Shown piece after piece: positions 1,274 through 20,626 of a DNA stretch of 61,345 bases; the first letter of the stretch is position 1, and each line of letters starts with the position of its first letter. Both the position numbers and the translations under genes were made by a program. Location of the stretch: sequence record DRR378314_471, one strand, 5' to 3'. Under the pieces are notes generated by a model, which had not been told where the DNA came from, did not search any database, and saw nothing but the letters and a program-made list of their open reading frames with translations.

Positions 1274-1311
1274 GAACCTATCTACCCTGCTTGGTATCAG
1301 TGGTTAACGAT

Positions 1312-1494: not shown

Positions 1495-1527
1495 CCTGCA
1501 ACCTCACCTAACCTATTGGCCACTACT

Positions 1528-2250
1528 TTAACCTTTCCTGATCTCCGCTTCTAACGCTCCTTCCTGCAGCGGCTCCCCCCAGGTGCTTCCATGCACAAGG
1601 TCAGCCAGCGGCAAGCGTGAGCGCCATCCCTTTTTTTCAAGCTCAGGCTGTTCAAGAAACTCGCTGACAAAGCCGAGGCACAGATAAGCCAACGGATAGA
1701 CATGCTCTGGGAGCTTCAGTGTCTTTGCCAGTTGTTCCTGATCCAGAATACTGACCCAGCCCACACCAATCCCCTCGGCCCTGGCCGCGAGCCAAAAGTT
1801 CTGTACTGCCAGGCAGGTACTGAACAGATCCGTTTCGACGATCGAGTTACGCCCCAGCACATGGGTACCACCGCGGCTGCGGTCGCAGGTGATGCATAGA
1901 TTTATCGGGCTCTCCAAAATGCCTTGTAGTTTGAGGCTTTTGTACTGCGCATTCCGATCGCCCTCATAGTTATCCGCCGCTTTACGGTTCTCTTCCTCGA
2001 AAATGGAAAGCACCTCGCGCCGCACGGTCTTGCTATCAATGACGAGAAAATCCCAGGGCTGCATAAAGCCGACGGAGGGAGCGTGATGGGCCGCCTCAAG
2101 CAGACGGGCAAGGACGTCCGGGGGGATCGGATCAGGAAGAAACTGTGAACGCACATCCCGACGTTCATGTATAGCACGATAAAGCCCCTTCATCTCTTCG
2201 TCACTAAAGGGGCGGTTATGATCTGATTGGTACGTTTTGTTATCCGTCAT
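1528..2250 (-). CDS. bluB: 5,6-dimethylbenzimidazole synthase
   Basis: Nitroreductase fold with RRDVR, AHHAPSVGFMQPW and QNFWLAARAEGIGVGWVS; lies within the cob operon. Confidence 0.93.
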   Translation of the reverse strand: MTDNKTYQSDHNRPFSDEEMKGLYRAIHERRDVRSQFLPDPIPPDVLARLLEAAHHAPSVGFMQPWDFLVIDSKTVRREVLSIFEEENRKAADNYEGDRNAQYKSLKLQGILESPINLCITCDRSRGGTHVLGRNSIVETDLFSTCLAVQNFWLAARAEGIGVGWVSILDQEQLAKTLKLPEHVYPLAYLCLGFVSEFLEQPELEKKGWRSRLPLADLVHGSTWGEPLQEGALEAEIRKG

Positions 2251-2259
2251 TCTTTGCCT

Positions 2260-3726
2260 CTAACGCCGTTCGCCCAGGCCCAGCAGATCCTTCAGAAACC
2301 CAGTGTCCAGGCACTCATCGACGAGATCCGCCAGGCGATCCAGCTGTTCCTGGCGGTGCGTTGTGTAGTCTACGGCCTGGTGTTGGGCTCCCAAGCCCGC
2401 CCATTCGAGTATCTCGCGGGTCGCTTCCGGCTGGTCGAAAATGCCATGGACATAAGTCCCCATCACCAGACCATCCGCACTCACCGCGCCTTCAGGCTTT
2501 TCATTCAACGTGGCCATTGGGCGCTCAAGCGCGGGGCCGCAGGAAACACCGTTGTGCATCTCATAACCTGTAAACCTCGCTCTTCCGCTGCCAATTCTTA
2601 ACTCCCCGGCAACGTCCTTCAGTGTCTTGCCGGCAACCATCCGTGTGGTCATGTTGAGCAACTCAAGGCCCGACGTGGTGCCGGCGCCCCCTTCCAGACC
2701 ATCCGGGTCAGAGACCTCCTGACCCATCATCTGGAAGCCGCCGCAAATGCCAAACACTTTGCCACCATAACGGAGGTGCTTCTGTATGGCCTCGGGCCAG
2801 CCATGGGTCCTCAGCCATTCCAGATCATGCCGGGTACTTTTGCTGCCCGGTAAGACGATCAGGTCCGCCGGAGGAATTCTCTGGCCCGGGCCAATAAACT
2901 GGAGGTTGACGCCGGGATGCAGACGCAGTGGATCAAAGTCGTTGTGATTGCTGATGCGGGGCAACACCGGCACGATCACGTTCAATGCACCTGGCTCGCT
3001 GGTGCCACTGGTGCCGACGCTGTCTTCGGCGTCAATCACCAGACCATGCAGATACGGCAATACGCCAGCTACGGTTTTAGCCGTGCGCTCGGTCAGCCAA
3101 TCCAGGCCTGGGTTCAGCAAGGCAATATCGCCCCGAAAACGATTGATTATAAAGCCTTTCGTACGCGCTCGTTCGTTCTCGGAAATGAGTTCAAGCGTGC
3201 CTACCAGTTGGGCAAATACACCCCCCTTGTCAATATCGCCGACAAGGAGCACCGGGCAATCGGCCGCTTCGGCAAAGCCCATGTTGGCGATATCGTTCGC
3301 ACGCAGGTTGATCTCAGCAGGGCTACCCGCACCTTCGGCGATGATCACGTCGTAGCGGGCGCTCAGGGCACGCCACGCCTCCACCACAGAGGCCATCGCC
3401 TCAGCCTTGTAGGCGTGGTAATCCAGAGCGTCCATATTGCCGTGAACCTTACCTCGCAGGATCACCTGGGCGCCGCAGTCACTCTGGGGCTTGAGCAGAA
3501 CCGGGTTCATGTCGCTATGAGGCTGGAGACCACAGGCCAGTGCCTGAAGTGCCGTGGAACGGCCTATTTCACCGCCGTCGACGGTGACTGCACTGTTCAG
3601 AGCCATGTTCTGGGGTTTGAAAGGCGCCACGGAGACACCCTGCCGCGCCAGCCACCGACACAGGGCGGCGACGACTGTGGTCTTGCCGGCATCGGAGGTC
3701 GTTCCCTGTATCATCAAGGTGGTCAT
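2260..3726 (-). CDS. cobQ: Cobyric acid synthase
   Basis: [35 protein letters not shown], GATase GICGGFQM and GTYVHGIFD. Confidence 0.97.
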
Positions 3727-3741
3727 GGATAGTGGCCTCGT

Positions 3742-4353
3742 CTACAGCTCGACGCCTTTCTGGGCTTTCACACCCAGGTCCTTGAACGCATGTTTCACAA
3801 TGCCCATCTCCGTAACAGTGTCCGCCAGGTCTACCAGCTCCTGCGGTGCCGATCGTCCGGTCACCACGACATGCTGCATCTCCGGGCGGCCCTGGAGGTC
3901 GTCCAGAACACGGTCAAGATCAATGTAATCGTACTTCAGGGCGATGTTGAGTTCGTCCAGCAGGACCAGATCGTAGCTGTCGTCTTTCAACATGTTGACG
4001 GCCACGTCCCAGGCCGCATTAGCGGCCTCAACGTCCTGCTCACGGTTCTTCGTTTCCCAGGTATAGCCCTGACCCATGACGTGGTAACTCACGTTAGGCA
4101 AGTCACGGAAGAACGCTTCTTCGCCGGTGCTGAATGCGCCCTTGATGAACTGGACTATGCCCACTTTCATGCCATGGCCAAGGGCCCGGGCCACCATGCC
4201 AAAACCTGAACTGCTCTTACCTTTGCCAGGGCCGGTGAGCACCAGCAACACACCCTGCTCCTTCTGGGCACGGGCAATGCGCTCCTGCATGATTTTCTGC
4301 TTGGCGTCCATGCGGCGGGCATGGCGTTCGGGGTCTTTGGCGCGTTCACGCAT
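3742..4353 (-). CDS. cobO: Cob(I)yrinic acid a,c-diamide adenosyltransferase (CobO/BtuR type)
   Basis: TGPGKGKSSSGFG, VQFIKG, LLDELNIAL, VVTGR and KHAF...AQKGVEL. Confidence 0.95.
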   Translation of the reverse strand: MRERAKDPERHARRMDAKQKIMQERIARAQKEQGVLLVLTGPGKGKSSSGFGMVARALGHGMKVGIVQFIKGAFSTGEEAFFRDLPNVSYHVMGQGYTWETKNREQDVEAANAAWDVAVNMLKDDSYDLVLLDELNIALKYDYIDLDRVLDDLQGRPEMQHVVVTGRSAPQELVDLADTVTEMGIVKHAFKDLGVKAQKGVEL

Positions 4354-5674
4354 GGTGGAGCTCCTTGTCAGTGAGCGGGAGAATGGCCTGCCCGCGAAAA
4401 ACTCTGGCTACCAACTCCGGGGCGGAGGGGAAATAGCCGTGGAAATAACTGGCGACCAGACCGCCCCGGGAGTACACCGGTTCGGCCTCGGTGCCCACAA
4501 CCTTGCGGGTTCGGGCCAGAGGTTGCCAGTCAGTCTCCAGTCGGGAGTGATGATAGGTATGGCCCCGCAGATGCCCGTGCTCGGTATTCAGGCCCTGCAG
4601 ACCCAGCGCTTGCAGGCGGTTAGCCATACTCGCCCTACCCGGCATCAGCCCTAGCAGGTCGTGGACCTGGCCGTCGTGATCCACTAACTGTTCGACACAC
4701 GCCATCAGGCCACCGCATTCCGCCAACATGGGTTTACCCGCCTTGTGGTGGCTGCGGATAGCCTCCAGCATTGCCAGGTTGCCAGCCAGGCGCCCACCAT
4801 GCAGTTCCGGGTAACCACCCGGAAGCCAGAGGGCATCGGCATCCGGTAACGTCGAATCCGCCAGGGGCGAGAAGAACACCAGCTCAGCGCCCATGGCTTG
4901 CAACAGGTCGAGGTTGGCGCGGTAGATAAAACTGAAAGCCGCATCCCGGGCAATGGCTATACGAGTACCTTCCAACAACCGGGGTGGCGGTTCCGGTTTT
5001 TCCGCAGACAGGTCAACCGGCTGCGGCAAGCCGTCCAGGCCGGCCTGGGCCAGCACGTCGGCAGCTGCATCCAGACGTTGATCCAGATCGCCCAATTCGC
5101 CGGCCTGAACCAGCCCAAGATGCCGATCCGGGATATCCATGGCCTCGTTTCGGGGAACGGCCCCCAGCAAACCGATGCCTTCAGGCAGGCTCTCCCGCAG
5201 CATAGCGCCATGGCGGGGGCTGCCGATGCGGTTGGCAATGACCTGATAAATTGGAAGCTCTGGGTCAAATGTCGCGAGACCCAGAGCCACCGCTCCAAAG
5301 GTCTGGGCCATGCCGCGGGCGTCAATGACCGGCAATGCCGGAATACCGATGAGTTTGGCAAGATCAGCACTTGAGGGGTCGCCGTCAAACAACCCCATGG
5401 AGCCCTCAACCAGAATCAGATCCGCCTCCTGGGCGGCTTCCGTGAGACGCCAGCGGCACTCGTCCTCGCCAGTCATCCACGGATGTAACTGGTACACCGG
5501 CTGCCCGGAAGCGAGCTCCAGAACCATGGGGTCGAGATAGTCCGGTCCATGCTTGAACACTCGAACGGTCTTCCCAGCGTTGCGGTGTAATCGTGCCAAG
5601 GCGGCCGTTACCATCGATTTTCCCTGACCAGAGCCAGGGGCGGTAATCATTGCGGCTGGTACGGTTGCTTTCAT
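4346..5674 (-). CDS. cobB: Cobyrinate/hydrogenobyrinate a,c-diamide synthase
   Basis: SGQGKS, FKHGPDYLDP, EGSMGLFDG, RHLGLV, GGYPELH and AECGGLM. ATG at 5674 chosen from the SD; ORF is open to 5683. Confidence 0.93.
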   Translation of the reverse strand: MKATVPAAMITAPGSGQGKSMVTAALARLHRNAGKTVRVFKHGPDYLDPMVLELASGQPVYQLHPWMTGEDECRWRLTEAAQEADLILVEGSMGLFDGDPSSADLAKLIGIPALPVIDARGMAQTFGAVALGLATFDPELPIYQVIANRIGSPRHGAMLRESLPEGIGLLGAVPRNEAMDIPDRHLGLVQAGELGDLDQRLDAAADVLAQAGLDGLPQPVDLSAEKPEPPPRLLEGTRIAIARDAAFSFIYRANLDLLQAMGAELVFFSPLADSTLPDADALWLPGGYPELHGGRLAGNLAMLEAIRSHHKAGKPMLAECGGLMACVEQLVDHDGQVHDLLGLMPGRASMANRLQALGLQGLNTEHGHLRGHTYHHSRLETDWQPLARTRKVVGTEAEPVYSRGGLVASYFHGYFPSAPELVARVFRGQAILPLTDKELHHA

Positions 5675-5728
5675 TAATGCCACCTTGTCTGGAAACTTAG
5701 AGAGCGCAATGGTGGTGCTCCGAGCCTT

Positions 5729-6502
5729 TTACATGGCCTTCTTGGGTACAAATAGTGGTGCACCATCGACCTCCACTGTCAGAAGCTCCTGATCATAGAG
5801 TCTTTCAAGCGCGGCCGGCACGAGCATGCGCTCTGCTGGCCCCCAGCACGCTTCGCCATTGGGGTACAGCAACAGCAGATGGTCACACCAACGTGCCGCA
5901 AGATTCAGGTCGTGCAGGCACATGAATACGGAACGCCCACTACGCGCCTGTTCGGTCAGCAACTGGAGCACCGATACCTGATGGTGCAGATCAAGGTGGT
6001 TAGTGGGCTCGTCCAGCAGCCAGGTGTCGGGCGCCTGGGTCAGCACTGTGGCAATGGCTACTCGCTGGCGTTCACCGCCGGAAAGTGTATTCACCAGTCG
6101 GTCACTGAGATGGCCCACGTCCAGTTGCTCCAGAGCTCGCCTCGCAAGACGTTCATCGGCTCCAGACTCCATCTGCCATGGCGACAACCACGGGTGACGG
6201 CCAATCAGCGCCGTTTCCAGCACTGTGGCGGGAAAGCCGTCCTGCCGCTCCTGGAACACAAGGCCCAGTTGTTGCGATATTGTTTTGCGCTTCAGGTCTG
6301 CCAAGGGATGCTCTCCCAGGCAAACCGAACCGCGACGCGGTGCTCGCAAACCTGCCAGTGTGTGCAAAAGCGTGGTCTTGCCAGCGCCATTCGGGCCCAA
6401 CACACCCCAGACCTGCCCGGTCTCCACGGCAAAGTTCAGCGCTTCCCCATCGCCGCGCCCTGGAATGTCGATGACCAACTGTCTTGCCTGCAACGGATTC
6501 AT
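5729..6502 (-). CDS. btuD: Cobalamin/Fe-siderophore ABC transporter ATP-binding subunit (BtuD-like)
   Basis: Walker A GPNGAGKTT, LSGGERQR, LLDEPTNHLD and HDLNLA. Start at 6502 overlaps the btuC stop; the ORF-track extension to 6946 is spurious. Confidence 0.88.
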   Translation of the reverse strand: MNPLQARQLVIDIPGRGDGEALNFAVETGQVWGVLGPNGAGKTTLLHTLAGLRAPRRGSVCLGEHPLADLKRKTISQQLGLVFQERQDGFPATVLETALIGRHPWLSPWQMESGADERLARRALEQLDVGHLSDRLVNTLSGGERQRVAIATVLTQAPDTWLLDEPTNHLDLHHQVSVLQLLTEQARSGRSVFMCLHDLNLAARWCDHLLLLYPNGEACWGPAERMLVPAALERLYDQELLTVEVDGAPLFVPKKAM

Positions 6503-7473
6503 CAGCGGCTCCGATACAGCAGGTAAAGGAACGTTGGCACCCCCAACAAGGCGGTGATCACGCCCACCGGCAACTGCTCTGGCGCAATCACTACCCGTGC
6601 CAGCGTATCCGCCAACACCAGAAGCGTACCGCCTGCCAGTGCGCAGGCGGGGAGAATCAGTCGCTGGTCGTTCCCAAGGACCAACCGGAGCATGTGGGGC
6701 ACCACCAAACCAACAAAACCAATACTGCCAGCCATGGTGACCGCGGTGGCAGTGAGCAGGCTGGCAAGGATATAGATCGTCCACTCCAGTGGGCGCACCG
6801 ACACCCCGAGGGCAGCCGCCTGCATCGGACCCCGTGCCAATACGTTGAGGCTGCGCCCCAGCGGCACGACCAAAAGGCACACCAGCCCCATCAAAACCAA
6901 TGCGGGCCAGGGAGATCTTGCGTAGGACACATCCCCCATCAACCAATACAGCATTCCCGGTAGACGCTGCGCCGGGCTGATCGCCAGCATCAATGTGATC
7001 ACGGCCCCCCAGCCGGCAGCGACCACCACACCGGTAAGCAACAAACGCGACGGTGTCCAGCTACCGGTGCCATGAGCCAGGCCAAACACCATTAGAGTGG
7101 CCAGCAGCGCACCGGCAAACGCCGACCCTGAAATAATCAGGCCGCCCAGGCCAGCCAGCATCGCCAACAAGGCACCAACGGCCGCACCGCCGGACAACCC
7201 CAGAACGTAGGGATCGGCCAATGGATTGCGTAAAAGCACCTGCATAAGGGCTCCGGCAACGGCGAGCAAACCGCCCGTTGCGAATGCAGACAGTGTCCGT
7301 GGCAGGCGCAATTCAAGCACCAGGGTTTGCTGCAGGTTGCTGCCCTTCCCCAGAATGACCGCGGCAACGTCTCCCGGTGCCACACTGACACTGCCAACAC
7401 CCACCGACACCATCATGGCGGCCAGGCTGGCCAGAGCCAGCAAAACAAGTGGCATGGTCAGGGGCCTGCTCAA
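6502..7473 (-). CDS. btuC: Cobalamin ABC transporter permease (FecCD/BtuC family)
   Basis: LRLPR, LLRNPLADPYVLGLSGGA, GSIGFVGLVVPH and ADTLAR...LPVGVITALLG; highly hydrophobic. Confidence 0.9.
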   Translation of the reverse strand: MSRPLTMPLVLLALASLAAMMVSVGVGSVSVAPGDVAAVILGKGSNLQQTLVLELRLPRTLSAFATGGLLAVAGALMQVLLRNPLADPYVLGLSGGAAVGALLAMLAGLGGLIISGSAFAGALLATLMVFGLAHGTGSWTPSRLLLTGVVVAAGWGAVITLMLAISPAQRLPGMLYWLMGDVSYARSPWPALVLMGLVCLLVVPLGRSLNVLARGPMQAAALGVSVRPLEWTIYILASLLTATAVTMAGSIGFVGLVVPHMLRLVLGNDQRLILPACALAGGTLLVLADTLARVVIAPEQLPVGVITALLGVPTFLYLLYRSR

Positions 7474-7488
7474 AGGATCCGTCTCCCA

Positions 7489-8385
7489 TTAACGTTTGGC
7501 ACGGGCATCATCCAGCTTCTCGCAAAACAGTTGTGAACCGTCCAGCATACGCGGGGTCGGGCGCTGGATCAGGGAAGGTGGAACGAAGTACAGGTTATCG
7601 TTCGCGGACGCATCGATACTCGGGAAAGCCTCCCAGCGGGTAAGCCAGTGCCGGTTTTCTTCGCCCATCCCCCCCGCCAGGATGGCCTCCGGGTTAGCGC
7701 CGATAACCGCCTCATCGCTGATCCTCGGCACCAAACGATCGAGATCACCAAACACATTCACACCGCCACACAGCGTTATCACTTTACCGATCAGGTGTTC
7801 ATCATTCACCGTCATCAGAGGCTCATCCCACACCTGATAGAAAACCGATACCGGTTCCGCACCCTGATACCGTTTTTCCAGTGCAGCCATTCCCTTGCGA
7901 AACCGATCGGCTTCGGCAAAGCCCTCTGTTTCGGTACCCGCCAGAATCGCCAGCCGTTCAATGGTGCTCGAGACGCCCTCAAAACTTCGGGGTTCAATAG
8001 AGAACACGGGCAAGCCCAGGTCTTTCAGAGCCGCAATCTGTTCCGGCGGATTGCCCGTCACCCAACCAATGACCAGGTCCGGTTTCAGTGCCATCAACCG
8101 CTCAAGGTCCATTCGAGTGTGGCTGCCCACGGAGGTGACTTGTTTCGCCTGCTCAGGGTAGTCGCTGTATGAGACCACCGCGATAACCTGGTCACCGGCA
8201 CCTGCGGCCCAGACAAGTTCGGTCGCTCCGGGAGATAAGGCTGCTATCCGGCTGGCCGGTTTTTCCAGGCAGACCTCCTGGCCGGTATCGTCTGTTGCGC
8301 AGCGCTCAGTTCCCGCCACAACCCAAGGTGACATGGCAAGTGCCAGGGACATCAGCGCAGCGGTATGCCGGAACGATTTCAACAT
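7489..8385 (-). CDS. btuF: Periplasmic cobalamin-binding protein
   Basis: Signal peptide; RIAALSPGATELVWAAGAG, VSYSDYPE, LKPDLV and RPTPRML. Probable start 8385 (ORF open to 8415). Confidence 0.88.
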   Translation of the reverse strand: MLKSFRHTAALMSLALAMSPWVVAGTERCATDDTGQEVCLEKPASRIAALSPGATELVWAAGAGDQVIAVVSYSDYPEQAKQVTSVGSHTRMDLERLMALKPDLVIGWVTGNPPEQIAALKDLGLPVFSIEPRSFEGVSSTIERLAILAGTETEGFAEADRFRKGMAALEKRYQGAEPVSVFYQVWDEPLMTVNDEHLIGKVITLCGGVNVFGDLDRLVPRISDEAVIGANPEAILAGGMGEENRHWLTRWEAFPSIDASANDNLYFVPPSLIQRPTPRMLDGSQLFCEKLDDARAKR

Positions 8386-11300
8386 GAGACCCTCTGGTTT
8401 CCGGGATTCTGACAATCATCGTTGGCAGCGCGTATCGCAGGGTAGTCGGCCGACCCACCTTTTCGAGCGGATTCGAAGGCTTCCCGCTGTTTGGGTTCCA
8501 ACTGATCCGCGACCCAATCCATCAGGGGGTGATCCGGGCGGGTGTGGCCACTGCCGGGCAAGCCATGGTCGATGATATTTCCTGCGAAGTCACGTGCCAG
8601 GGCCTGGCGGGTAAAGACATCCGCCTCCCAGAATCCACGCTTAGCAGCCAGAAGCGCAATCGCCTGCATGTGCGTTTTGACATGCACATTGTGGCCCTCC
8701 GCCAGGAAGTCATCCAGACCAAGGCCGTGGCGATCCTGAAAGTACACTTCATTGACCTCGTCCCAAACGCTGGAACGAAGCACCTGGGGACTTGTGATTT
8801 GCCAGCCCCACAGGTTGTCCAGAAAATCGCTACCCATGGTGCGAGCCCCCGCGTAGCCGTGCTCCATCAGCGGTGCCAACCACTGCGGGTTCAAATTGCG
8901 GGCTCTCAGCTCCACCTGCAAGGCTCGCTGGAGCGAGTCCACCCGGGGGTTGCGCGGGTCAGCGTACTGGAGCACCCGGTTTTGCGGTGGCTCGCCACGC
9001 AAGTGTTCCACAGCATTGGAAAGGCCGCCCTGAAAGTCAAAACCGTCATCGTTGTCCAGCAGACCGTAGAGGTGGCTGGCCCTGCCGAGGTAGGTATGGT
9101 TCACCGTCTGCAATTGGCGATCGAACGCGTCATGAGCCGGCTCACCCTGGCTGCCTTTGCCATAGACGTGCCCCATGCGCCGGCGGTAGGCGTCACCCAG
9201 TTGCTCCCGGTCCTGCCAGGCGCCCGTCCGGGTGGCGAGACGATTAACCCCGGCCCCGTATGCGCCCGGAGCCGTACCAAAGACCCGGAAAGCGGCCTGT
9301 GCACCCGCATCTCGCGCCGAAGCACCCGCTGCCAACAATACCCGGGCATCGTCGACCCAGCGTGCCGCGACAACGTTGGTGGACAGAGACTCGTCACCGG
9401 GCTCACGCATGTCTGATGGCAGAACCGACAACGCCTGAGCCAGGGCTTCGCGCAGCTCAGGGTACTCCGCCTCAATGGTTTCCGCCGCACCCGCCAGGGC
9501 GTAACGCGACGCCATATCCAGCCATTCCAGTTGGCTTTCGTATAGATCCCGGAACAGGCCGGATGTGGTGAATACCACGTTACGCCGAATGGGCGTATCG
9601 GTTCCCGCACCCGCAGGAAGACGCTCCAACCCCTTCACAATACCCCGACTGTTCCACACCGGGCGTATGCCCAACAACTTCATGCCAAACGCAATCATGA
9701 CCCCTTCGTCCCGCACCGTATCGGATGCCCAGAGCACCAGCGCATCGCTTTGCTCCGAAGCGCTGTCTTTAGTGGCCCTGGCTTGCTCAACCAATTCTTC
9801 CGCCAGGGACCAGGCCACGCGGGTTGGAATCAGGTCATCGGACAGCGCATGGAAATTGCGCCCCGTTGGCAAGACCGCCGGCGTTCGCAACGGGTCGTTG
9901 CCCTGCCCCGGAGCAACAAACCGACCATTCAGCGCGTTGAGAAAGCTGGTACGCTCAGCAGCAGGGGAGGCCTCAAGATGGGTGCGCCAGCCCGGCTCTG
10001 GCGTGCCGGCCTTACCAGCCATGGAATCCAGCATGGTGTCCACCATGTCGGCACTCCAGTCCCGGCCGAACACGTGTAGCCCCAAGGGCATGAAGTGTTC
10101 CTGCATGTCGGTGACGTAATGGCCGGCTTCGTGGACCAGGAGGTCGGGTGAAAGCTCATCGAGGGACACTTCTTCCACCGACAACCCCATCTCTCCAGCG
10201 ATTTCCTGTTCGAGATCATCGGAGATATCCAACACCTGGATTTTCTCCCGCAGCATCTTCAGCGCCCGCTCTCTCGTTGGGCTGCCGGGCTCGTTGGCAG
10301 ACTCCCAGGTTTCCACCAACTGCCGCAGTTCGAGCAATTCATCGTACAGCTCGGTAGCAGCCAGTGGCGGGGTAAGATGACTGATCATGACGCCCAGCGC
10401 CCGGCGCTTCGCCTGAATCCCCTCTCCCACACCGTCAACAATGTAGGGGTAGATTAATGGGAGGTCACCCCCCAGAAGGTCCGGGTAGTCATCCCCCGTC
10501 AAACCCGCCCGTCGGCGCGGCAGAAACTCTCGGGTGGAGTGGCGCCCAACATAAACCAGCGCATCAGCCTGATAGTGATCTCGTAACCAGTAGTAGAATC
10601 CCACGTATTGATGGGTCGGGGGGAACGTGGTGTTGGCGTGCAACAACTCCTCATCCACTTCCCAGCCTCGTGGCGGTTGCGGGCCAATGTAGATATTACC
10701 GAAGCGAAGCCCCGGAAAAATCAGCCTGTCATCCACCACCATCGAATCGCCTGGGGCTGTACCCCAACCCTTGAGGCCGGGAATACCGGCATTTGCAAGC
10801 GACCGGCGACTGGTTTCCAGCGCTTCCGTCTGTCCACCCTTGTTCAATCGCGTTTGCCAGAGCAATTCGTATTGGTCCAGCCGGCTCAAGGCAGCCTTCC
10901 GGTTTGGGTGCTGGATGTGTTCGATCAGATGCCGAAGATCCTGAACGCCTCGGTTCAAAAGATCCGTGGCCAGTTCTTTCTCCCCCATCCCATGTGCCTG
11001 TTCAAGCCGCTCATGCAAATAACCCAGAGGTCCGTGGACGATCTCCTGCTGCACAACCTGGGGCAAGGTTTCGAGATACTGGCGGTAGGTGCTGCCGGCC
11101 ATTGAGGCGACATCGCCGGCCATTTCCCTTAACGCACGAGGGTCATCAGGGAGGCTTACACCTCGCTGTTGAAGCAGATCCGTGAGCGCCTCCGGGCTTT
11201 CCGGCAATGGCCCGGTCTCATAGCCTTCCGCCTTGAGCCAGGTCAGCATTTCGTAGAGGGACGCTGGCACATCCAGGTTGTCCGCTCCGATGTTCTGCCT

Positions 11301-12593
11301 CCCAGGAGGGTGATTGTAATAAATGATGGCAACGCGCTTGTCGGCATTCGTCTTCGCTTGCAGCGCCTGCCAGCGGGTCAGGCGATCTGCCAACGCGTTC
11401 ACCCGCTCCTTGACCGGCTGAGTCAGAGTCAGGGCCACACCAGTGTTTTCGTCAATCACTTCCGGCTCCGCAGTCGCCAGCACCATGGGCTGACTGACAC
11501 CCTGGAGTTCGGGCATCGCCAGTTTGTAGTGTACTTTGTCGGACGGAATGCCATCGATCGACAACTGCCACTGATTGGCGGTGCGAGAGGCCAGACGCAA
11601 GCCCTTGACCACCGGGACATTTAGCTGGATCAACGCTTCCGTAACCTGACGCCGCCCTTCACCGCCGCCGATGATGAAGTCCTGCAGGCTGACGATACCG
11701 GACAAAGTCGCAGGGCCTACCGTCTCATCGAGGGCACGAACAGCCTCAAGACTGGCACCGCCCCATCGCGAGAGGATTGCGAAACACTGCATGCCCCTGG
11801 ACTCCAGGGCCGCACAGGTTTCGTCCAGCAGCGCCTGATCGCCGGGGCGATCACCGCTGTCCAGGTCCAGAAGGGCGACCACGGGGCCGGCTCTCAGGTT
11901 AAGATTCGCAGCGCTATCCGTCGCTTCGCCATTGCGGTAATAGCGGATCAGCGCCCGGGGCGGCAGATCCGGCACCTCCAGCGCCTCGCCCGCGTGAACA
12001 AGCAACCAACGCAATAACGCGTCCAGATGCTGCGGGGTGCGCCCCTGGTATAGGGCCCGACCTGCAAGCCAGGACGCCTGATCAGGAAAGCGCGCCTTAA
12101 GCTCCGCCCGATGGGCCTTCAAGTCCGTGCCGGGGTCCGGCGCTTTCATCAGGTTATTCAGTGTGGTGGCATCCAGCCCTTCCAGGGCCCTGCGCCCCTG
12201 CAACCGCGACAATACGGTCAGCGCCCTATCGCCATTCACCGCCAGCACAGGAAAATCGCGAACGGTCTCCTGTTCGCGCACCGCGCGCTCGATCCGCCCC
12301 ACCTGCTCGCCAAAAACCGCGGCCATCAACAAGGCATCGGCTTGGCCCACCAGATCGTCAAGGGCCGTGTTGTCCAGGTTTGCCAACTGCTCTGGTGTTC
12401 TCAGAATGATGCGGTGATCCGGATAAGCGTCCAGGAAGCGCTCCGCACCTGCGGCCATCTCGGCAGCGGAGCGTTCAGACACCACGCCAAATACCGTGGC
12501 ACCGAACACCGGGGCCGAAAACAGCATTACCAACCCCAGAACGAAAGCCAATACCGGGCGGTTCCTATTCCAATCCGGACCTGTGCGGTTCAT
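8379..12593 (-). CDS. CobN/ChlH-family chelatase-like protein with predicted signal peptide (BtuS/HmuS-like)
   Basis: YYNHPPG...GADNLDVPASL, GPQPPRG, PPTHQY, IYPYIVDGVGEGIQAKRR, SHLTPP, LPTGRNF, TSGLFRD, GAYGAG and LNPQW...HGYAGA. N-terminus has a basic + hydrophobic signal-like segment; 1404 aa. Confidence 0.9.
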   Translation of the reverse strand: MNRTGPDWNRNRPVLAFVLGLVMLFSAPVFGATVFGVVSERSAAEMAAGAERFLDAYPDHRIILRTPEQLANLDNTALDDLVGQADALLMAAVFGEQVGRIERAVREQETVRDFPVLAVNGDRALTVLSRLQGRRALEGLDATTLNNLMKAPDPGTDLKAHRAELKARFPDQASWLAGRALYQGRTPQHLDALLRWLLVHAGEALEVPDLPPRALIRYYRNGEATDSAANLNLRAGPVVALLDLDSGDRPGDQALLDETCAALESRGMQCFAILSRWGGASLEAVRALDETVGPATLSGIVSLQDFIIGGGEGRRQVTEALIQLNVPVVKGLRLASRTANQWQLSIDGIPSDKVHYKLAMPELQGVSQPMVLATAEPEVIDENTGVALTLTQPVKERVNALADRLTRWQALQAKTNADKRVAIIYYNHPPGRQNIGADNLDVPASLYEMLTWLKAEGYETGPLPESPEALTDLLQQRGVSLPDDPRALREMAGDVASMAGSTYRQYLETLPQVVQQEIVHGPLGYLHERLEQAHGMGEKELATDLLNRGVQDLRHLIEHIQHPNRKAALSRLDQYELLWQTRLNKGGQTEALETSRRSLANAGIPGLKGWGTAPGDSMVVDDRLIFPGLRFGNIYIGPQPPRGWEVDEELLHANTTFPPTHQYVGFYYWLRDHYQADALVYVGRHSTREFLPRRRAGLTGDDYPDLLGGDLPLIYPYIVDGVGEGIQAKRRALGVMISHLTPPLAATELYDELLELRQLVETWESANEPGSPTRERALKMLREKIQVLDISDDLEQEIAGEMGLSVEEVSLDELSPDLLVHEAGHYVTDMQEHFMPLGLHVFGRDWSADMVDTMLDSMAGKAGTPEPGWRTHLEASPAAERTSFLNALNGRFVAPGQGNDPLRTPAVLPTGRNFHALSDDLIPTRVAWSLAEELVEQARATKDSASEQSDALVLWASDTVRDEGVMIAFGMKLLGIRPVWNSRGIVKGLERLPAGAGTDTPIRRNVVFTTSGLFRDLYESQLEWLDMASRYALAGAAETIEAEYPELREALAQALSVLPSDMREPGDESLSTNVVAARWVDDARVLLAAGASARDAGAQAAFRVFGTAPGAYGAGVNRLATRTGAWQDREQLGDAYRRRMGHVYGKGSQGEPAHDAFDRQLQTVNHTYLGRASHLYGLLDNDDGFDFQGGLSNAVEHLRGEPPQNRVLQYADPRNPRVDSLQRALQVELRARNLNPQWLAPLMEHGYAGARTMGSDFLDNLWGWQITSPQVLRSSVWDEVNEVYFQDRHGLGLDDFLAEGHNVHVKTHMQAIALLAAKRGFWEADVFTRQALARDFAGNIIDHGLPGSGHTRPDHPLMDWVADQLEPKQREAFESARKGGSADYPAIRAANDDCQNPGNQRVSC

Positions 12594-12615
12594 GTGTTTG
12601 CCTCTCCGTGGCCGA

Positions 12616-14427
12616 TCAGATGTCGTAACGTATCGTCAGCATTGCAGTGCGGCCTGCGGCTATGTAGGCATCGCCACCTGAGCGCAATGCCGTGGCGTAT
12701 TCCTTGTCTAACACATTGTCCAACGTCACGTTGGTGGTCCAATGATGGTCGATTCGCCATTTTGCCCGCAGATCCCAAGTGGTAAAGCCAGCGATACGCT
12801 GTTCGTTCTCGGCGTCGTTATAGCGATATCCCTGCCCTTTAACCGTTGTACCCACGGATACCTGACCAAAAGACCGGTCCACGTCCACCCGGAACTGTTT
12901 GCCACTGCGACGGCGAATGCGGTTGTCGGTCTCACGGTCACGGGGGTCCGTTACTGACGCGGCCGCCTGCAGAGTCCATTCATCAAGTTCCAGACCGGCA
13001 CTTAGCTCCGCCCCCCGGATGCGTGCCTCGTTGACATTGAACGGTGCTGACCGCCCGTTTATTGTCGTGAACACGATCAGATCATCTGCGTCAGTCTGGT
13101 AAATAGCGGCGTCCCAAAACCAATAGGTGTACCGCCCGCCAATACCAAGCTCAACACTGCCTGCGGTTTCCGGTTTCAGGTCGGCGTTCCCAAAGTTGGG
13201 AAAATAAAGGTCATTGAACGTGGGGGCGCGGAAAGACGTGCTGTAGCTCACCCGGGCGCGATGGTTACGGTCCAGATCAACGCCCATGGCCACCGCGCCG
13301 GTCTCCTCACGCCCAAACGCCTCGTTGTCATCCGCACGCAAACTCAGCTGAAAGTCTGTCGGACCGAAATTCAACAGGGCCTGGCCAAAAACGGCGGCAT
13401 TGGTGCGACTGGTTTCGTCAAAGTCGGTGGTGCTATCCACTTCGTCCACCAACAGCTCACCGCCAACGATGTATTCGTGACGGCCAGCGCTGATCTGGTT
13501 CTCCCAGCGGGCACTGCGAGTCTTGGTATCAAAGGTGCTGAAACCAAAGTTGTCGCGTGTGTCCTGCTCATCAATGGATTCCGCGAGCAGGATGCGGCTG
13601 CGCCAATAGTTGCTGATGGGGGTGTCGAGTTTGAAGCCGAGGGTCTGAATGGCGAAATCGGTATCACCGTCCTCAAATTCGGTATTCCCCTGCGCCCGCA
13701 TCAGGACGAGGCCGGCTTCGCCACCGGAGTCAAACTGATGGGCTACGGACGCCAGGGCGGAGGTGTTTCGAAAACCCTTATCGTCGCCGTCTTCCACGAT
13801 GGCGGTGCCGTCGGTCTCCAGGTGGCTCGCGCTCACGCTGTATTTCATCCTGCCTTCGGTACCGGCGGCTCCAGCCACATATTCCTGAGTATTGAAGTTG
13901 CCGCCTCCCGCCTGGACCCAGCCTTCGTGACCGGTCTCAGCACTGTGGGTGAAAGCCTGGATGACACCCCCCACGGCATCGGCACCATAAAGGTTACTGC
14001 GTGAGCCACGGACAATTTCGACCCTCTCCACCATTTGCGGCGGGAAGTACTGCCAGGCTGCACTGCCGCTGGTGGCCGAGCGCAGGCGAATACCGTCCAC
14101 CAGGAACACCGTGGATTCGCTTCCGGTACCCCGTGTATAGACACTGGTATTCTTGCCGAAAGAGCCATTGCTCGTGATATCGAGACCGGGCTGGCCCATC
14201 AGCAGCTCCTCGAATGTCTGTGGCTGAAGACGCTCGATAGCCTCCTCGTCAATGACCGTGACGGAAGAGTCGCTTTCGCCCCGGGTCTTCGGGCCAAGCG
14301 TTGCCGTAACAACAATGGGGTCAAGCGCCGAAACAGTCGCTTCTTCGTCGGCCGACGCATTGGAAAGCGGCAGAAACACAAGGGGGAGACCGGACAACAG
14401 AACCGGCATGGACTTCACGTAACCCAT
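12616..14427 (-). CDS. btuB: TonB-dependent vitamin B12 outer-membrane receptor
   Basis: TonB box DPIVVTAT, plug RGTGSESTVFLVDG and ERVEIVRG...LYGADAVGGVI, FRAPTFNDLY; lies directly below a cobalamin riboswitch. Start uncertain (14409-14445). Confidence 0.92.
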   Translation of the reverse strand: MGYVKSMPVLLSGLPLVFLPLSNASADEEATVSALDPIVVTATLGPKTRGESDSSVTVIDEEAIERLQPQTFEELLMGQPGLDITSNGSFGKNTSVYTRGTGSESTVFLVDGIRLRSATSGSAAWQYFPPQMVERVEIVRGSRSNLYGADAVGGVIQAFTHSAETGHEGWVQAGGGNFNTQEYVAGAAGTEGRMKYSVSASHLETDGTAIVEDGDDKGFRNTSALASVAHQFDSGGEAGLVLMRAQGNTEFEDGDTDFAIQTLGFKLDTPISNYWRSRILLAESIDEQDTRDNFGFSTFDTKTRSARWENQISAGRHEYIVGGELLVDEVDSTTDFDETSRTNAAVFGQALLNFGPTDFQLSLRADDNEAFGREETGAVAMGVDLDRNHRARVSYSTSFRAPTFNDLYFPNFGNADLKPETAGSVELGIGGRYTYWFWDAAIYQTDADDLIVFTTINGRSAPFNVNEARIRGAELSAGLELDEWTLQAAASVTDPRDRETDNRIRRRSGKQFRVDVDRSFGQVSVGTTVKGQGYRYNDAENEQRIAGFTTWDLRAKWRIDHHWTTNVTLDNVLDKEYATALRSGGDAYIAAGRTAMLTIRYDI

Positions 14428-14585
14428 ATCAACACTCGCTGGCAAACCACGCGCACCCGCATGGTGATGGTTATGTCGCGGAGCTTGAGAGTGAGACTGG
14501 GGGAGGCAGGATACGAGTCAGGGTACGGGTGTGAAACCGGCACAACTCACCCACCGCCGTCGCCCTCCGCAACGCTTGGTGTGTA

Positions 14586-14782
14586 ATCAGGCCGGTCTCC
14601 GGGCTTACGAGTGAAACAGCGTGTTGGGCCGATTCGGGGCAATCACCTTCCCATGCAAGACGCACAGTGGTTGATACGATTGCCTTTGACTCGCTTACCG
14701 TTGCGGGGGCAGCGTCGGACTTTAACCGACTTCCCGTTTTAAGCTTTCCGGCGGGCGTACCGCGAGAAAGCGTTACCTGAAT
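14586..14782 (-). ncRNA. Cobalamin (AdoCbl) riboswitch
   Basis: Minus strand: TCAGGT...AAAACGGGAAGTCGGTTAAAGTCCGACGCTGCCCCCGCAACGGTAA...CCACTG...TGGGAAGG...AGCCCGGAGACCGGCCTGA (B12 box); upstream of btuB. Confidence 0.95.
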
Positions 14783-14831
14783 ACGGTGTTCATTTAATCG
14801 GGGGCCAAACTAGCAGCCCTTATGTGCTAAA

Positions 14832-15876: not shown

Positions 15877-16437
15877 TCATTGTTCACCCGGCACCCACAG
15901 CACATCGTCTTTTCCCTTGTTGTTCGCGTGTCTGGCCAGGACGAACAGCAAATCCGACAGGCGATTCATATAAGCCAACACAGGCTGGCTGATGTCCTGT
16001 TCTTCCTGCAACTGAGCAATGATTCGCTCAGCCCTTCGCGTGACGGTGCGGGCATGGTGCAAGTGCGTTGCGGCCGGGTTACCCGCAGGCAGGATAAAGG
16101 AACGCAGCGACGGTATATTCGCGTTGAAACGGTCAATTTCCTGTTCAAGCTCAACGGTCTTGCCTTCAGCCAGCCTCAATGGCGGGTATTTCGGGTTCTC
16201 CTCGAACGGGGTACACAGATCCGCACCCACGTCGAAAAGATCGTTCTGGATGCGCGCCAGCATGCCATCCAGCTCCTGGTCCACGTGAAGCCGCGCCAGC
16301 CCGATCACGGCATTGGCTTCATCCACCGTGCCATAAGCCTCCACGCGCAGGTCGTGCTTGGCAACCCGGCTGCCATCGCCTAGGCCGGTGTCGCCTTTGT
16401 CGCCGGTCTTGGTGTATATCTTGGTAAGCCTGACCAT
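15877..16437 (-). CDS. PduO/MMAB-type ATP:cob(I)alamin adenosyltransferase
   Basis: KIYTKTGDKGDT, RVEAYGTVDEAN, QNDLFDVGADL, FILPAG, RTVTRRAER and NRLSDLLFVLAR. Confidence 0.94.
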   Translation of the reverse strand: MVRLTKIYTKTGDKGDTGLGDGSRVAKHDLRVEAYGTVDEANAVIGLARLHVDQELDGMLARIQNDLFDVGADLCTPFEENPKYPPLRLAEGKTVELEQEIDRFNANIPSLRSFILPAGNPAATHLHHARTVTRRAERIIAQLQEEQDISQPVLAYMNRLSDLLFVLARHANNKGKDDVLWVPGEQ

Positions 16438-16479
16438 TTATTTCTCCCGGAATCCGGTTCATTACATTATCGAAGCCGG

Positions 16480-18177
16480 TCAGATTACAGGTTTTTCGCG
16501 ATAGGTTCCCCATAGGCCTTTGAGGGTTTCCACGATGTCACCCATTGAGGCCCCTTCCTTGACCAGCTCAATGGTGATGGGCATAAGGTTCGCCGATTCG
16601 TCTTCGGCCTGCTCTTTCAACTGTGCCAGCATGGCCTGGACTTTCTCCTCGTCGCGACCGTCCTTGACCCGGTTCAGACGCTCAATTTGCCGACGCTCCG
16701 TTTCCGGGTCGTGGGGATGGGTTTCAATCTCTACATCTTCTTCGTCCTGCACGAACATGTTGACGCCGATCACCGGCCGCTCGCCACTGGCTTTGCGCAG
16801 CGCGAAATCGTACGCAGAATCGGAGATGCCTCTCTGGAAGTAGCCATCGTCGATACACTGGAGCGTGCCGCCAAGCTCTTCAACCTCATCGAGAACGCTC
16901 CAGACTTCCTTTTCAATCTCATCGGTAAGATTCTCGACGTAATAGGAGCCGCCCAGCGGATCCACCACCTGGGTTATGTTGGTTTCGTAGGCGATGATCT
17001 GTTGGGTGCGCAGGGCAATGCGCATCGCCTCCTCTGTTGGGATGGCGAAGGCCTCGTCCATGCCATTGGTGTGCAGCGACTGGGCACCACCAAGTACAGC
17101 GGACAACGCCTGCAGCGCGGTACGGATCGGGTTGATGGTGTACTGGGGCTTGGTCAGGGTCGCTGCGGCTGTCTGAGCGTGGAAGCGCAAGCGGCTGGCC
17201 TCGGGTTTGGTGGCGCCGAATTTCTCCCGCATGATCTTGGCGTAAACCCGCCGGGCAGCTCGGAACTTGGCAATCTCCTCAAAGAAATCCGCCTGGCTCA
17301 CGAAGAAGAAGGACAGCCGGGGACCGAACTCATTCACGTCCACGCCAGCGTCGATGGCGGTACGGACATATTCCATGGTGGTAGCCATGGTATACGCCAC
17401 TTCCTGGACGGCGGTCGAACCCGCTTCCGAGATGTGATAGCCGGAAATGTTGATGGGATTGTAGCGCTTCATGTTCTCAGCCCCATACTGAATACAGTCG
17501 CGAACCAGGCGAACTGAGGGGCGCACCGGGAATATCCATTCCTTCTGGGCAATGTATTCCTTGAGAATATCATTCTGAATGGTGCCCGACAGATCGTTCA
17601 GGTCATACCCACGCTTCTGCGCCAGGGCGATGTACATGGCGTAGAGGATCCAGGCCGACGGGTTGATCGTCATGGATACCGAGATTTTGGTCAGATCAAT
17701 ATCATCGAACAGTTCCTCCATATCCGCGAGGGTATCGATCGCGACACCTTCACGACCGACCTCACCCTGGCTCATGGAATGGCTGGAGTCATAGCCCATC
17801 AGGGTGGGCATATCAAAGTCGATCGACAGCCCGGTCTGGCCCTGGGCAATCAGGTACTTGAATCGGCCGTTGGTTTCCTTCGCGGTGCCGAAACCGGCAA
17901 TCTGGCGCATGGTCCAGTTCTTGCCGCGATACATTGTGGGGTAAGGCCCGCGGGTAAACGGATACTGGCCGGGAAAGCCGATATCCTCAAACGGGGTGCC
18001 TTTCACGTCCAGAGGCGTGTAGGTGCGTTTGGTCGGCATGCCGGAGGCGGTGACGTACTCAGACTTGCTCTCTGGAGCGCGCTTGATGAAAGACGACACC
18101 TCGTTGTCTTCCCACTGTTTGAACTCGGTTTCAATGTGCTTGAGTGCAGCGGGGTCATACTGGTCAGTGCGATTCAT
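16480..18177 (-). CDS. hcmA: B12-dependent acyl-CoA mutase large subunit, 2-hydroxyisobutyryl-CoA mutase type
   Basis: MCM substrate-binding barrel without a fused B12 domain; RQIAGFG (Ile93) and SIDFD (Asp120) match the HCM specificity residues; EYIAQK has Gln rather than the MCM Arg. Confidence 0.88.
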   Translation of the reverse strand: MNRTDQYDPAALKHIETEFKQWEDNEVSSFIKRAPESKSEYVTASGMPTKRTYTPLDVKGTPFEDIGFPGQYPFTRGPYPTMYRGKNWTMRQIAGFGTAKETNGRFKYLIAQGQTGLSIDFDMPTLMGYDSSHSMSQGEVGREGVAIDTLADMEELFDDIDLTKISVSMTINPSAWILYAMYIALAQKRGYDLNDLSGTIQNDILKEYIAQKEWIFPVRPSVRLVRDCIQYGAENMKRYNPINISGYHISEAGSTAVQEVAYTMATTMEYVRTAIDAGVDVNEFGPRLSFFFVSQADFFEEIAKFRAARRVYAKIMREKFGATKPEASRLRFHAQTAAATLTKPQYTINPIRTALQALSAVLGGAQSLHTNGMDEAFAIPTEEAMRIALRTQQIIAYETNITQVVDPLGGSYYVENLTDEIEKEVWSVLDEVEELGGTLQCIDDGYFQRGISDSAYDFALRKASGERPVIGVNMFVQDEEDVEIETHPHDPETERRQIERLNRVKDGRDEEKVQAMLAQLKEQAEDESANLMPITIELVKEGASMGDIVETLKGLWGTYREKPVI

Positions 18178-20566: not shown

Positions 20567-20581
20567 CGGACACTCCTGATA

Positions 20582-20589: not shown

Positions 20590-20626
20590 GGTTGTCGTCT
20601 GAGGAAATCTGCGGCCACGTCTCTGG

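Follow-up and report, generated by a model that had tools for sequence, protein, structure and literature searches.

An apparently exported CobN homologue in a Marinobacter-type cobalamin operon: a possible periplasmic inserter of cobalt into corrinoids

Introduction

What does a large CobN-like protein with an apparent export signal do in an operon for corrinoid uptake? The question is raised by DRR378314_471, a stretch of DNA of 61,345 nt (hereafter the window, always meant at its full length), in which an open reading frame (ORF) on the minus strand (8379-12593), here called P0001, follows a cobalamin riboswitch and lies between the genes of a BtuB-type receptor and of a BtuFCD-type importer. 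By its sequence matches, P0001 falls into a clade of Gammaproteobacteria within the large subunits of class I chelatases (the CobN/ChlH/HmuS superfamily). In our reading, to which we give a probability of about 40%, it may be an ATP-independent enzyme that inserts cobalt into cobalt-free corrinoids in the periplasm, before their uptake through BtuFCD. The comparative data, which are those of genes and genomes, favour such a metallation over the removal of cobalt.

The name BtuS was given in 2003 (Rodionov) to exported CobN homologues with a proposed role in salvage (PMC6460266), and P0001 fits the description of BtuS given there, since it has a riboswitch, a btuB neighbour, a leader and a clade of its own. 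Exported homologues of the BtuS/HmuS type are widespread, and only one of them has been tested, the haem dechelatase HmuS, an enzyme bound to the membrane, dependent on NADH and independent of ATP, described in 2025 in a superfamily with many unassigned clusters (PMC12583661). Exported CobN homologues of the BtuS type are thus already known; what is new is a soluble Marinobacter form without the membrane partners of that type, and a genome-level pattern which suggests cobalt insertion and not removal. A literature search, with supplements outside its scope, found nothing on the gammaproteobacterial clade of P0001; the clustering dataset EV4 of PMC12583661 may allow this clade to be placed.

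Results

Most of the related genomes with a ring pathway have no cytoplasmic-type CobN

Genome content was judged from 25 related genomes that bear the clade, and not from the window's own genome; one of them (G010) carries only a 45%-identical neighbour outside the clade, and the three closest whole genomes (G001-G003) are from Marinobacter. CbiC/CobH was found in 14 of the 25 genomes. The ring pathways are, by their gene content, oxygen-dependent and of the late-insertion type; CobG scored above its cut-off in G005, G007 and G008, the three of these 14 genomes searched for it genome-wide, and cobG adjoins the module in six more Thioalkalivibrio loci. In Thioalkalivibrio the exported gene lies within the ring cluster, in the order btuB, pduO, cobN-like, MotA-like, DUF2149, cobO, cobB, cobA and cbiD, then an ABC-2 ATPase, an ABC-2 permease, cobG, cobH, cobI, cobJ, cobL, cbiG-C and cobM.

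Thirteen of the 14 ring-pathway genomes have no CobN of the cytoplasmic type. The exception, G007, has a canonical CobN of 1277 amino acids, encoded in one cassette with CbtA, a ChlD-like gene and CobW. G007 is also the only one of the 19 genomes tested with true CobW and CbtA, and the only one of the 14 with a ChlD-type protein. CbiK was found in none of the 14, and a CobS- or ChlD-type protein is missing from 12 of the 13 that are without the cassette. A late-insertion pathway needs a chelatase for the cobalt-free ring, and in 13 of 14 genomes the exported homologue is the sole recognisable candidate, so that we read the clade as putative extracytoplasmic cobaltochelatases.

A second CobN-family gene occurs in only three of the 25 genomes (G007, G010 and G016), and outside G007 it proved not to be canonical. 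The gene of G010 is BchH-like by motif and has ChlI/ChlD neighbours. That of G016 (Thioalkalivibrio sp. ALE10; L085, 2348-8391, minus strand) encodes another C-anchored, predicted exported homologue of 1328 amino acids with the loop HFGTHGSAEYGVGK, directly behind a TonB-dependent receptor of its own.

Genomes without the ring pathway keep late genes of the operon

CbiC/CobH is absent from the three Marinobacter genomes, Vreelandella massiliensis, Billgrantia saliphila, a metagenome-assembled genome of Aquisalimonas and four Thioalkalivibrio strains; genomes G001-G004, G006 and G009 are without it, and in these six neither an AAA+ partner nor a second CobN was found. TP_methylase matches number only two or three in each of G001-G004; CobG above cut-off was found in none of these genomes, and the Marinobacter genomes have no CbiG. 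The original prediction had left a genome-wide search for cobS and cobT as a check: in the three closest Marinobacter genomes none of CobS, CobT, ChlI, ChlD and CobW scored above its cut-off (the best CobS-like match reached 114 bits against 558.55), and the ring pathway is absent there as well. Weak CobS/ChlI-like matches of 20-124 bits in Marinobacter, Thioalkalivibrio and others were taken, by score alone, as MoxR/NorQ-type ATPases.

The genomes without the ring pathway retain cobB, cobO and cobQ in the operon, with CbiB encoded elsewhere (five of five genomes). CobB has a use only where the corrinoid taken up has not yet passed the stage of (hydrogeno)byrinic acid, and its retention counts in favour of cobalt insertion. 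Two side observations concern these genomes. Small genes of the CbiX family (class II chelatases; 74-93 bits) occur in the ring-less Marinobacter and Billgrantia genomes (table 1); they are probably related to sirohaem synthesis, and those of Marinobacter (74-82 bits) were rejected by inference as corrin chelatases. In Marinobacter salarius R9SW1 (L034; G001:C1:3004392-3007747) a single TGA divides the exported CobN-like gene into two frames, of 978 and 442 amino acids, and CbiB is likewise split in two frames (G001:C1:3956652-3957492), which reflects either sequencing error or a decaying salvage pathway.

A conserved leader points to export

A word-seeded search listed 120 homologues of 956-1558 amino acids, or 121 proteins with P0001; they come from Marinobacter (66-92% identity) and from Halomonadaceae, Aquisalimonas, Thioalkalivibrio, Salicola, Halospina and Algiphilus (57-68%). 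The first 31 residues of P0001 are those quoted in the original prediction, and ATVFGVVSERSAAE follows them. The start of the mature protein is marked by a block, (T/x)-V-V-G-I-V-S-E-R-S-A, found within the first 90 residues in 120 of the 121 proteins, the exception being a fragment of 956 amino acids. Ahead of it, an uncharged stretch of 10 residues or more is found in 118 of the 120 homologues, with K or R before the stretch in 111; position -1 is A, G or S in 116. The sequence of the leader drifts while its properties are kept; real signal peptides behave in this way, which supports export.

The ends of other family members point the same way. Lipobox-like sites occur in four homologues; in two of them (P0104 and P0120) the Cys is followed by an acidic linker rich in Ser and Asp. 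In 53 of the 121 proteins, none of the Marinobacter type, the C-terminus is made up of an acidic linker, then a hydrophobic helix and then basic residues (such as GRR, in the 12 tails inspected). If the leader is cleaved and the basic tail of the C-terminal helix stays on the cytoplasmic side, the body of the protein would lie in the periplasm. Where the orthologues have this anchor, P0001 has a short tail with a Cys pair. It contains only four Cys, in two i/i+10 pairs (260/270 and 1394/1404), and the tail pair is found in 51 of 63 full-length proteins of the Marinobacter type; that these pairs fit an oxidising compartment is only a hint. Taken together, these features support P0001 being a Sec-exported, soluble periplasmic protein. 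Both the Sec-like signal and the export of which the original prediction spoke are thus upheld, by the leader, the lipobox variants and the anchored orthologues ending in RR.

P0001 belongs to a clade distinct from canonical CobN

Membership of the superfamily is clear, with PF02514 (CobN-Mg_chel) matching P0001 in three stretches at 791.3 bits against a cut-off of 24.5. Matches to proteins of known structure are nearly equal for CobN (9uk9, 337 bits), ChlH (4zhj, 332) and HmuS (9d26, 331), each set out in four aligned stretches. P0001 is named cobaltochelatase subunit CobN in databases; all six NCBIfam CobN models nevertheless stay below their cut-offs (265-551 bits against 822-1926), the best being NF004644 with 550.8 bits (cut-off 1248) and TIGR02257 with 494 (822). 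The BchH/ChlH equivalogs TIGR02025 (542 bits; cut-off 829) and NF009140 (495; 1300) are likewise below.

The active-site loop of P0001 (motif 1), YVGRHSTREFLPRR, aligns with HMGKHGNLEWLPGK in CobN 9uk9, HFGTHGSLEFMPGK in ChlH 4zhj and HFGTHGSLEFTPRK in HmuS 9d26, whereas the canonical CobN rows of the tree described below read H[VIM]GKHGNLEWLPGK. The departures noticed from the sequence alone are real: His685 and Glu689 are kept, the first His is replaced by Tyr and GK by RR. The G, H, E and P of the motif are invariant in an alignment of 35 rows that includes canonical CobNs. The central His corresponds to HmuS His538, said to be conserved throughout the superfamily (PMC12583661). The form Y[VL]GRHSTREFLPRR is found in 111 of the 121 family members. 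The second cavity motif, LLDNDDGFDFQGG, is identical in 108 of the 121 and is CobN-like (LDSDDYYQFQGG), unlike that of HmuS (LSLDHVYEFMGG). With both motifs nearly fixed, the departures from the canonical form are traits of the clade and not decay. The extra arginines of motif 1 (K to R, L to R and GK to RR) might, as a speculation, favour a substrate that carries more carboxylates than the a,c-diamide does.

Residues 560-1404, used to scan 1.84 billion representatives, gave 3641 matches; among the best 150 of them, 122 with at least 1100 amino acids were kept and 28 shorter ones dropped. Hydrophobic segments lie at both ends in 92 of the 122, only at the C-terminus in 17, only at the N-terminus in four and at neither end in nine, seven of which belong to the canonical CobN clade. 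A phylogeny of 132 rows (the 122, eight family members and two ORFs from loci), drawn with FastTree as a quick method and with clades labelled by motif, bears out the separation of P0001 from canonical CobN, a check suggested at the outset. The clade of P0001 (eight rows, support 100) is nested in a "GRHST" clade (14 rows, support 100), whose other members keep the first His, and this in turn in a clade of anchored proteins (26 rows, support 100). The latter has as its sister (support 98) a clade of 13 rows in which the leaderless canonical CobNs are found. HmuS-motif rows are placed in the opposite half; the tree's deepest split is weak (58).

An AlphaFold2 model of residues 560-1404 has a mean pLDDT (predicted local distance difference test) of 82.7. 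Foldseek gave 20 matches at E <= 0.001, and the 16 best are all CobN, ChlH or HmuS (E 1.9e-38 to 7e-22), with HmuS first (E 1.9e-38, TMq 0.51) and CobN 7c6o at 5.4e-34 (TMq 0.45); structures of all three proteins were matched at E 1.9e-38 to 2e-30. The model's C-terminal half superposes on the CobN fragment 9fpc with a root-mean-square deviation of 2.3 A.

The operon and its partner genes

Behind the riboswitch the order of genes is btuB, the P0001 gene, btuF, btuC, btuD, cobB, cobO, cobQ and bluB, with gaps of -37 to 22 nt (computed for all gaps but the two that flank btuD). The ATG start codon of P0001 lies 7 nt 3' of GGAGAGG. Terminators and promoters were looked for in the operon; the matches, 21 where 13 +/- 3.9 are expected, were weak and lay within genes. 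The ORF, domain and RF00174 matches agree with the original description of a CobN/ChlH-family ORF of 1404 amino acids between btuB and btuFCD in a B12-riboswitch operon. The absence from the window of cobS/cobT and chlI/chlD, also stated there, is confirmed among the ORFs scanned (10 at 83-14445 and 30 at 14.8-60.1 kb, 29 of these of at least 180 amino acids), which include no AAA+/vWA chelatase subunit. The btuB of the operon is the sole strong BtuB-type receptor in genomes G001 and G002.

We compared 79 related loci, 40 from other genera and 39 of the Marinobacter type. Outside Marinobacter the CobN-like gene is followed in all 36 evaluable loci by a MotA/ExbB-like gene (about 150 amino acids, PF01618) and a DUF2149 gene (about 97 amino acids, PF09919). 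The two genes are found in none of the 34 evaluable Marinobacter-type loci, and the three Marinobacter genomes have no MotA-like orthologue anywhere. In the window itself tblastn gave no match to the MotA/ExbB-like partner, and no separate search of it was made for DUF2149. The lack of these partners, noted from the window, is therefore a property of Marinobacter and does not extend to the other genera, so that the loss occurred only there. Judged by these loci, the Marinobacter form is a derived one that has lost the anchor and both partners and is still 66-92% identical across the genus, with intact motifs. The anchored orthologues (Halomonadaceae, Thioalkalivibrio, Halospina, Salicola and Aquisalimonas), which are 57-68% identical to P0001, share with it the two motifs, the riboswitch and the btuB neighbour; they differ in the acidic linker and C-terminal transmembrane helix and in the partner genes, all foreign to Marinobacter.

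Directly upstream of the CobN-like gene lies btuB in 29 of 36 Marinobacter-type loci and 28 of 34 from other genera. Seven Marinobacter loci (L014, L016, L018-L021 and L073) are rearranged to btuB, btuFCD, cobB, cobN-like, cobO and cobQ, in which cobB, cobN-like, cobO and cobQ stand in the biochemical order of the aerobic late pathway. A cobalamin riboswitch precedes the module in all six further loci tested. Two of these six, relatives of 44-45% identity in metagenome-assembled genomes (L052, 9712-9895; L055, 1124-1306), have the riboswitch directly before the CobN-like gene, with no btuB between, and the MotA-like and DUF2149 genes still 3' of it.

Discussion

A possible route of cobalt insertion outside the cytoplasm

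If P0001 inserts cobalt, the following course of events may be proposed. Under control of the riboswitch, P0001 would be made only when cobalamin is scarce, together with BtuB, BtuFCD, CobB, CobO and CobQ. A cobalt-free corrinoid of the hydrogenobyrinic acid type would enter through BtuB and be bound by the exported enzyme in its central cavity, with His685, Glu689 and a CobN-like DNDD loop, and Co2+ would be inserted without ATP. The cobalt corrinoid would presumably be handed to BtuF and then to BtuCD, after which CobB would amidate it in the cytoplasm, CobO adenosylate it and CobQ amidate it again, before completion. Substrate, direction of the reaction, hand-over to BtuF and export itself are all putative elements of this scheme.

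In most other genera the enzyme would be tethered by its C-terminal helix and paired with the MotA/ExbB-like and DUF2149 proteins as a proton-channel pair, perhaps driving it in place of an AAA+ motor. There the exported enzyme appears to replace the cytoplasmic CobW-CobNST route of de novo synthesis, while Marinobacter, without a ring pathway, may keep an untethered and uncoupled form for salvage. A wider scenario, which we hold to be possible but rather doubtful, is that several lineages of Gammaproteobacteria add cobalt to the corrin ring outside the cytoplasm: an intermediate of the hydrogenobyrinic acid type, still free of cobalt, would be exported, or shared among cells as a public good, metallated in the periplasm by the exported CobN homologue with coupling to the proton-motive force through MotA/ExbB-DUF2149 (uncoupled in Marinobacter), and taken up again by BtuFCD. 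A BtuC orthologue 70-74% identical to that of the window is present in all five Thioalkalivibrio producer genomes.

A candidate for the export step, and no more than that, is an ABC-2 pair (an ABC_tran ATPase and an ABC2_membrane permease), which the ring-synthesis clusters of Thioalkalivibrio (seven loci), Halospina and Halomonadaceae KBTZ08 have between cbiD and cobH/cobG. The pair could export the corrinoid intermediate or, alternatively, transport cobalt. It was rejected as a marker of export-dependent producers, as it is also present in G007 with its canonical cassette and does not discriminate.

Several observations weigh against cobalt insertion in the periplasm. De novo producers would have to export a cobalt-free intermediate, a task for which the ABC-2 pair is no more than a candidate. 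Cobalt-free corrinoids, which have been reported from purple sulfur bacteria, would also have to be available in the sea. In motif 1 of P0001 Tyr takes the place of the superfamily's first His, its scores against the CobN equivalogs are far below the cut-offs, and its best fold match is the dechelatase HmuS, narrowly ahead of CobN and ChlH. The known class I chelation is energy-dependent, for reasons that are not understood (PMC7689651), while the Marinobacter form is without the sole candidate coupling device.

The genome pattern has its own weak points. G007 possesses both the exported and the canonical system, so the exported one may serve another role there. One genome without the cassette, G024, has a CobS-like protein at 548.6 bits (cut-off 558.55) and a CobT-like one at 497.9 (cut-off 759), with no canonical CobN found. 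The search for CbiX was limited to three of the 14 ring-pathway genomes, with no match in G005 and weak ones (23-27 bits) in G007 and G008. Going by the titles of their records, the ring-pathway genomes that lack the cassette are draft assemblies, and they come without completeness figures. As a side observation on G024 (Aquisalimonas sp. APHAB1-3; L086, 3923-9782, plus strand), the adjacent CobS-like and CobT-like genes follow downstream of a gene for a MocA-like cytidylyltransferase at a distance of about 1.4 kb, with one unassigned ORF between.

Removal of metal as an alternative

A periplasmic dechelatase or metal exchanger of the HmuS kind would take the metal out of imported metallated tetrapyrroles, or exchange it, so as to gain cobalt or clean up the ligand; mis-metallated corrinoids, cobalt or other metalloporphyrins and haem would be its substrates. 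We consider this unlikely. Removing cobalt from a corrin is chemically very hard, and the hypothesis leaves unexplained both the ring-pathway genomes without a late cytoplasmic chelatase (13 of 14) and the presence of cobB in genomes without the ring. It does draw strength from HmuS of Bacteroides thetaiotaomicron (hmuYRSTUV; PDB 9d26, 9p4s), the only characterised exported member, which needs no ATP and faces the periplasm (PMC12583661). Like HmuS, P0001 is predicted to be extracytoplasmic and ATP-independent and is encoded behind a TonB-dependent receptor; the Foldseek ranking puts HmuS first, and the end of motif 1, P-R-(K/R), resembles HmuS.

Outside Marinobacter the likeness goes further, as the orthologues have the C-terminal anchor and the HmuU/HmuV-type partners (MotA/ExbB-like and DUF2149) of the HmuS system. 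Their layout of TonB-dependent receptor, CobN-like, MotA/ExbB and DUF2149 genes is that of hmuRSTUV, and their loci match the hmuS-(T)-U-V arrangement described in PMC11681262. P0001 itself has a leader only, without C-terminal anchor or partner genes, whereas HmuS has anchors at both termini. The motifs also differ: HFG(T/A)HG in HmuS (PMC12583661) stands against YVGRHS in P0001, and LSLDHxxEFMGG, with His1209 and Glu1212, is replaced by the CobN-like DNDD loop, LLDNDDGFDFQGG, with Asp at both positions. The HmuS-like clade is distant, in the opposite half of the tree, and the context of HmuS is one of haem, that of P0001 being the uptake of corrinoids and the late part of B12 synthesis, controlled by a B12 riboswitch. 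The HMMER alignment of P0001 to HmuS 9d26 begins at query residue 324, so that the head of HmuS, with the Met-rich insertion, Met79 and His254, lies outside it.

A further comparison is with the BtuS proteins. They resemble P0001 in being related to CobN while being neither CobN nor ChlH, in their predicted export and in their link to a btuB-type receptor, and their proposed role is in salvage and not in biosynthesis (PMC6460266). BtuS1 and BtuS2 of B. fragilis act on haem iron and, unlike P0001, are membrane-anchored (PMC6460266), and the HmuS/BtuS-like clade of Bacteroidota, labelled by motif, is distant from that of P0001.

Binding of corrinoid or of cobalt

Alternatively, P0001 could be a non-catalytic binder that takes corrinoids from BtuB, holds or buffers them in the periplasm and passes them to BtuF. 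The position of its gene would suit this, flanked as it is by btuB and btuF in 29 of 36 Marinobacter-type loci, as would the lack of anchor and stator in Marinobacter and the replaced first His of motif 1; canonical CobN, moreover, co-purifies with tightly bound corrin (PMC7689651). The near invariance of the catalytic His and Glu and of both cavity motifs (111 and 108 of 121) speaks for an active enzyme, however, and a six-domain enzyme fold of 150 kDa would be a costly binder where BtuF already exists. Since a binder would also leave the producers without a chelatase, we find this explanation quite unlikely.

Capture of cobalt itself, a role once suggested for PA1922-PA1925 of Pseudomonas aeruginosa, seems improbable for P0001, which would then bind Co2+, free or as a chelate delivered by the receptor, and feed an importer of the inner membrane. 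The two loci have in common a receptor and a CobN-like gene without an AAA+ partner, and PA1922-25 were induced with higher cellular cobalt (PMC4542158). A CbtA-type cobalt importer was not found in 18 of 19 genomes, which may leave room for such a role. The neighbours of P0001, however, are a B12-type receptor and the corrinoid-type importer BtuFCD, and a cytoplasmic chelatase, missing in 13 of 14 producers, would still be required. The Pseudomonas locus is regulated by Zur (zinc) and has neither a B12 riboswitch nor a corrinoid gene context, unlike the operon of P0001 (PMC4542158). It includes the small partner genes PA1924, called an ExbD homologue, and PA1925 (PMC4542158); by this description the loci of other genera resemble it, since there too two small genes come after the receptor and CobN-like genes.

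Relation to the cytoplasmic cobaltochelatase

Canonical CobN of the CobNST complex (9uk9 of Brucella, 7c6o of M. tuberculosis, and 9fpc) gives the best match to P0001 among sequences of known structure. Its clade is sister to the wider clade of P0001, the DxDD cavity loop is common to both, and cobB and cobO, neighbouring genes in the operon, encode the steps before and after CobN. The canonical protein is cytoplasmic, has about 1250-1290 amino acids and no leader, and works with the CobS/CobT AAA+ motor and the chaperone CobW (PMC7689651). P0001, by contrast, has a predicted signal peptide, its closest genomes are without CobS, CobT and CobW, and its loop YVGRHSTREFLPRR differs from Hx(G)KHGNLEWLPGK. 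That P0001 is nonetheless an ordinary cytoplasmic CobN, with a hydrophobic N-terminus that does not function as a signal and an unrecognised ATPase partner, is highly improbable: its database name, its place among late cob genes and near the canonical clade would agree, but the leader keeps the properties of a signal peptide despite drifting in sequence, orthologues carry lipobox variants and anchors with cytoplasmic RR tails, CobS, CobT, ChlI, ChlD and CobW are absent from the closest genomes, and the CobN equivalog scores were all assessed, for this alternative, at less than half of their cut-offs.

What an exported chelatase would mean

Should the pattern of 13 of 14 genomes without cytoplasmic CobN, CobW and CbtA hold, the textbook late aerobic pathway would have an unrecognised variant with extracytoplasmic insertion of cobalt. 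The exported module would then replace the whole cytoplasmic CbtA-CobW-CobNST route, and Marinobacter would be a salvager of cobalt-free corrinoids, which would become candidate shared metabolites. Genome-based calls of B12 makers and users in saline and marine communities would change, as the annotation "cobaltochelatase subunit CobN" would conceal a different compartment and different partners. The Marinobacter form is the simplest member seen, one predicted soluble periplasmic protein, and can be directly purified and assayed.

Coordinates of features and neighbouring genes

The features of the window and of the related genomes and loci are collected in table 1.

Table 1. Positions of the features discussed; those without a prefix refer to the window, and those with a G or L prefix to related genomes and loci.
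Feature	Position	Strand	Basis
Cobalamin riboswitch aptamer, operon leader	14573-14795	-	RF00174, 100.5 bits (gathering score 31.5)
btuB-type TonB-dependent receptor	12616-14445	-	plug and barrel domains; TIGR01779, 440.8 bits, below cut-off 599.7
P0001, CobN-superfamily protein of 1404 amino acids, export predicted	8379-12593	-	PF02514, 791.3 bits
Sec-type signal peptide (predicted), residues 1-31, cleavage around VFG/A	12501-12593	-	conserved leader properties, 120 homologues
Active-site loop motif YVGRHSTREFLPRR, residues 681-694	10512-10553	-
Second cavity motif LLDNDDGFDFQGG, residues 1178-1190	9024-9062	-	identical in 108/121 members
Short C-terminal tail with Cys pair C1394/C1404, replacing the orthologues' membrane anchor	8382-8414	-
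btuF, periplasmic corrinoid-binding protein	7489-8415	-	PF01497; NF002894 (BtuF), 163.6 bits, below cut-off 234
btuC, permease	6502-7473	-	FecCD, 280 bits
btuD, ATPase	5729-6502	-	ABC_tran domain; likely start ATG at 6502, overlapping the btuC stop
cobB, (hydrogeno)byrinic acid a,c-diamide synthase	4346-5683	-	NF002204, 423 bits (cut-off 254)
cobO/btuR, corrinoid adenosyltransferase	3742-4353	-	NF004637, 273 bits
cobQ, cobyric acid synthase	2260-3726	-	NF001989, 654 bits
bluB, dimethylbenzimidazole synthase	1528-2250	-	TIGR02476, 275.7 bits
Small CbiX-family gene	G001:C1:1454200-1454505
Small CbiX-family gene	G002:C1:2756300-2756602
Small CbiX-family gene	G003:C103:299574-299879
Small CbiX-family gene	G006:C4:3582-3893
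ABC-2 pair, example	L038 19300-20984
ABC-2 pair, example	L083 13936-15437
ABC-2 pair, example	L084 14171-15672

The genes upstream of the riboswitch include that of a threonine-phosphate decarboxylase, that of a PduO-type adenosyltransferase and a cluster, with MeaB, for a B12-dependent acyl-CoA mutase. The stretch directly upstream of the operon (15877-21760, minus strand) holds the PduO-type adenosyltransferase, the large subunit of the acyl-CoA mutase and MeaB, and also a PaaK-like CoA ligase, the mutase's small subunit, which binds B12, and a regulator of the GntR type; a B12-dependent mutase cluster thus adjoins the operon for the supply of B12.

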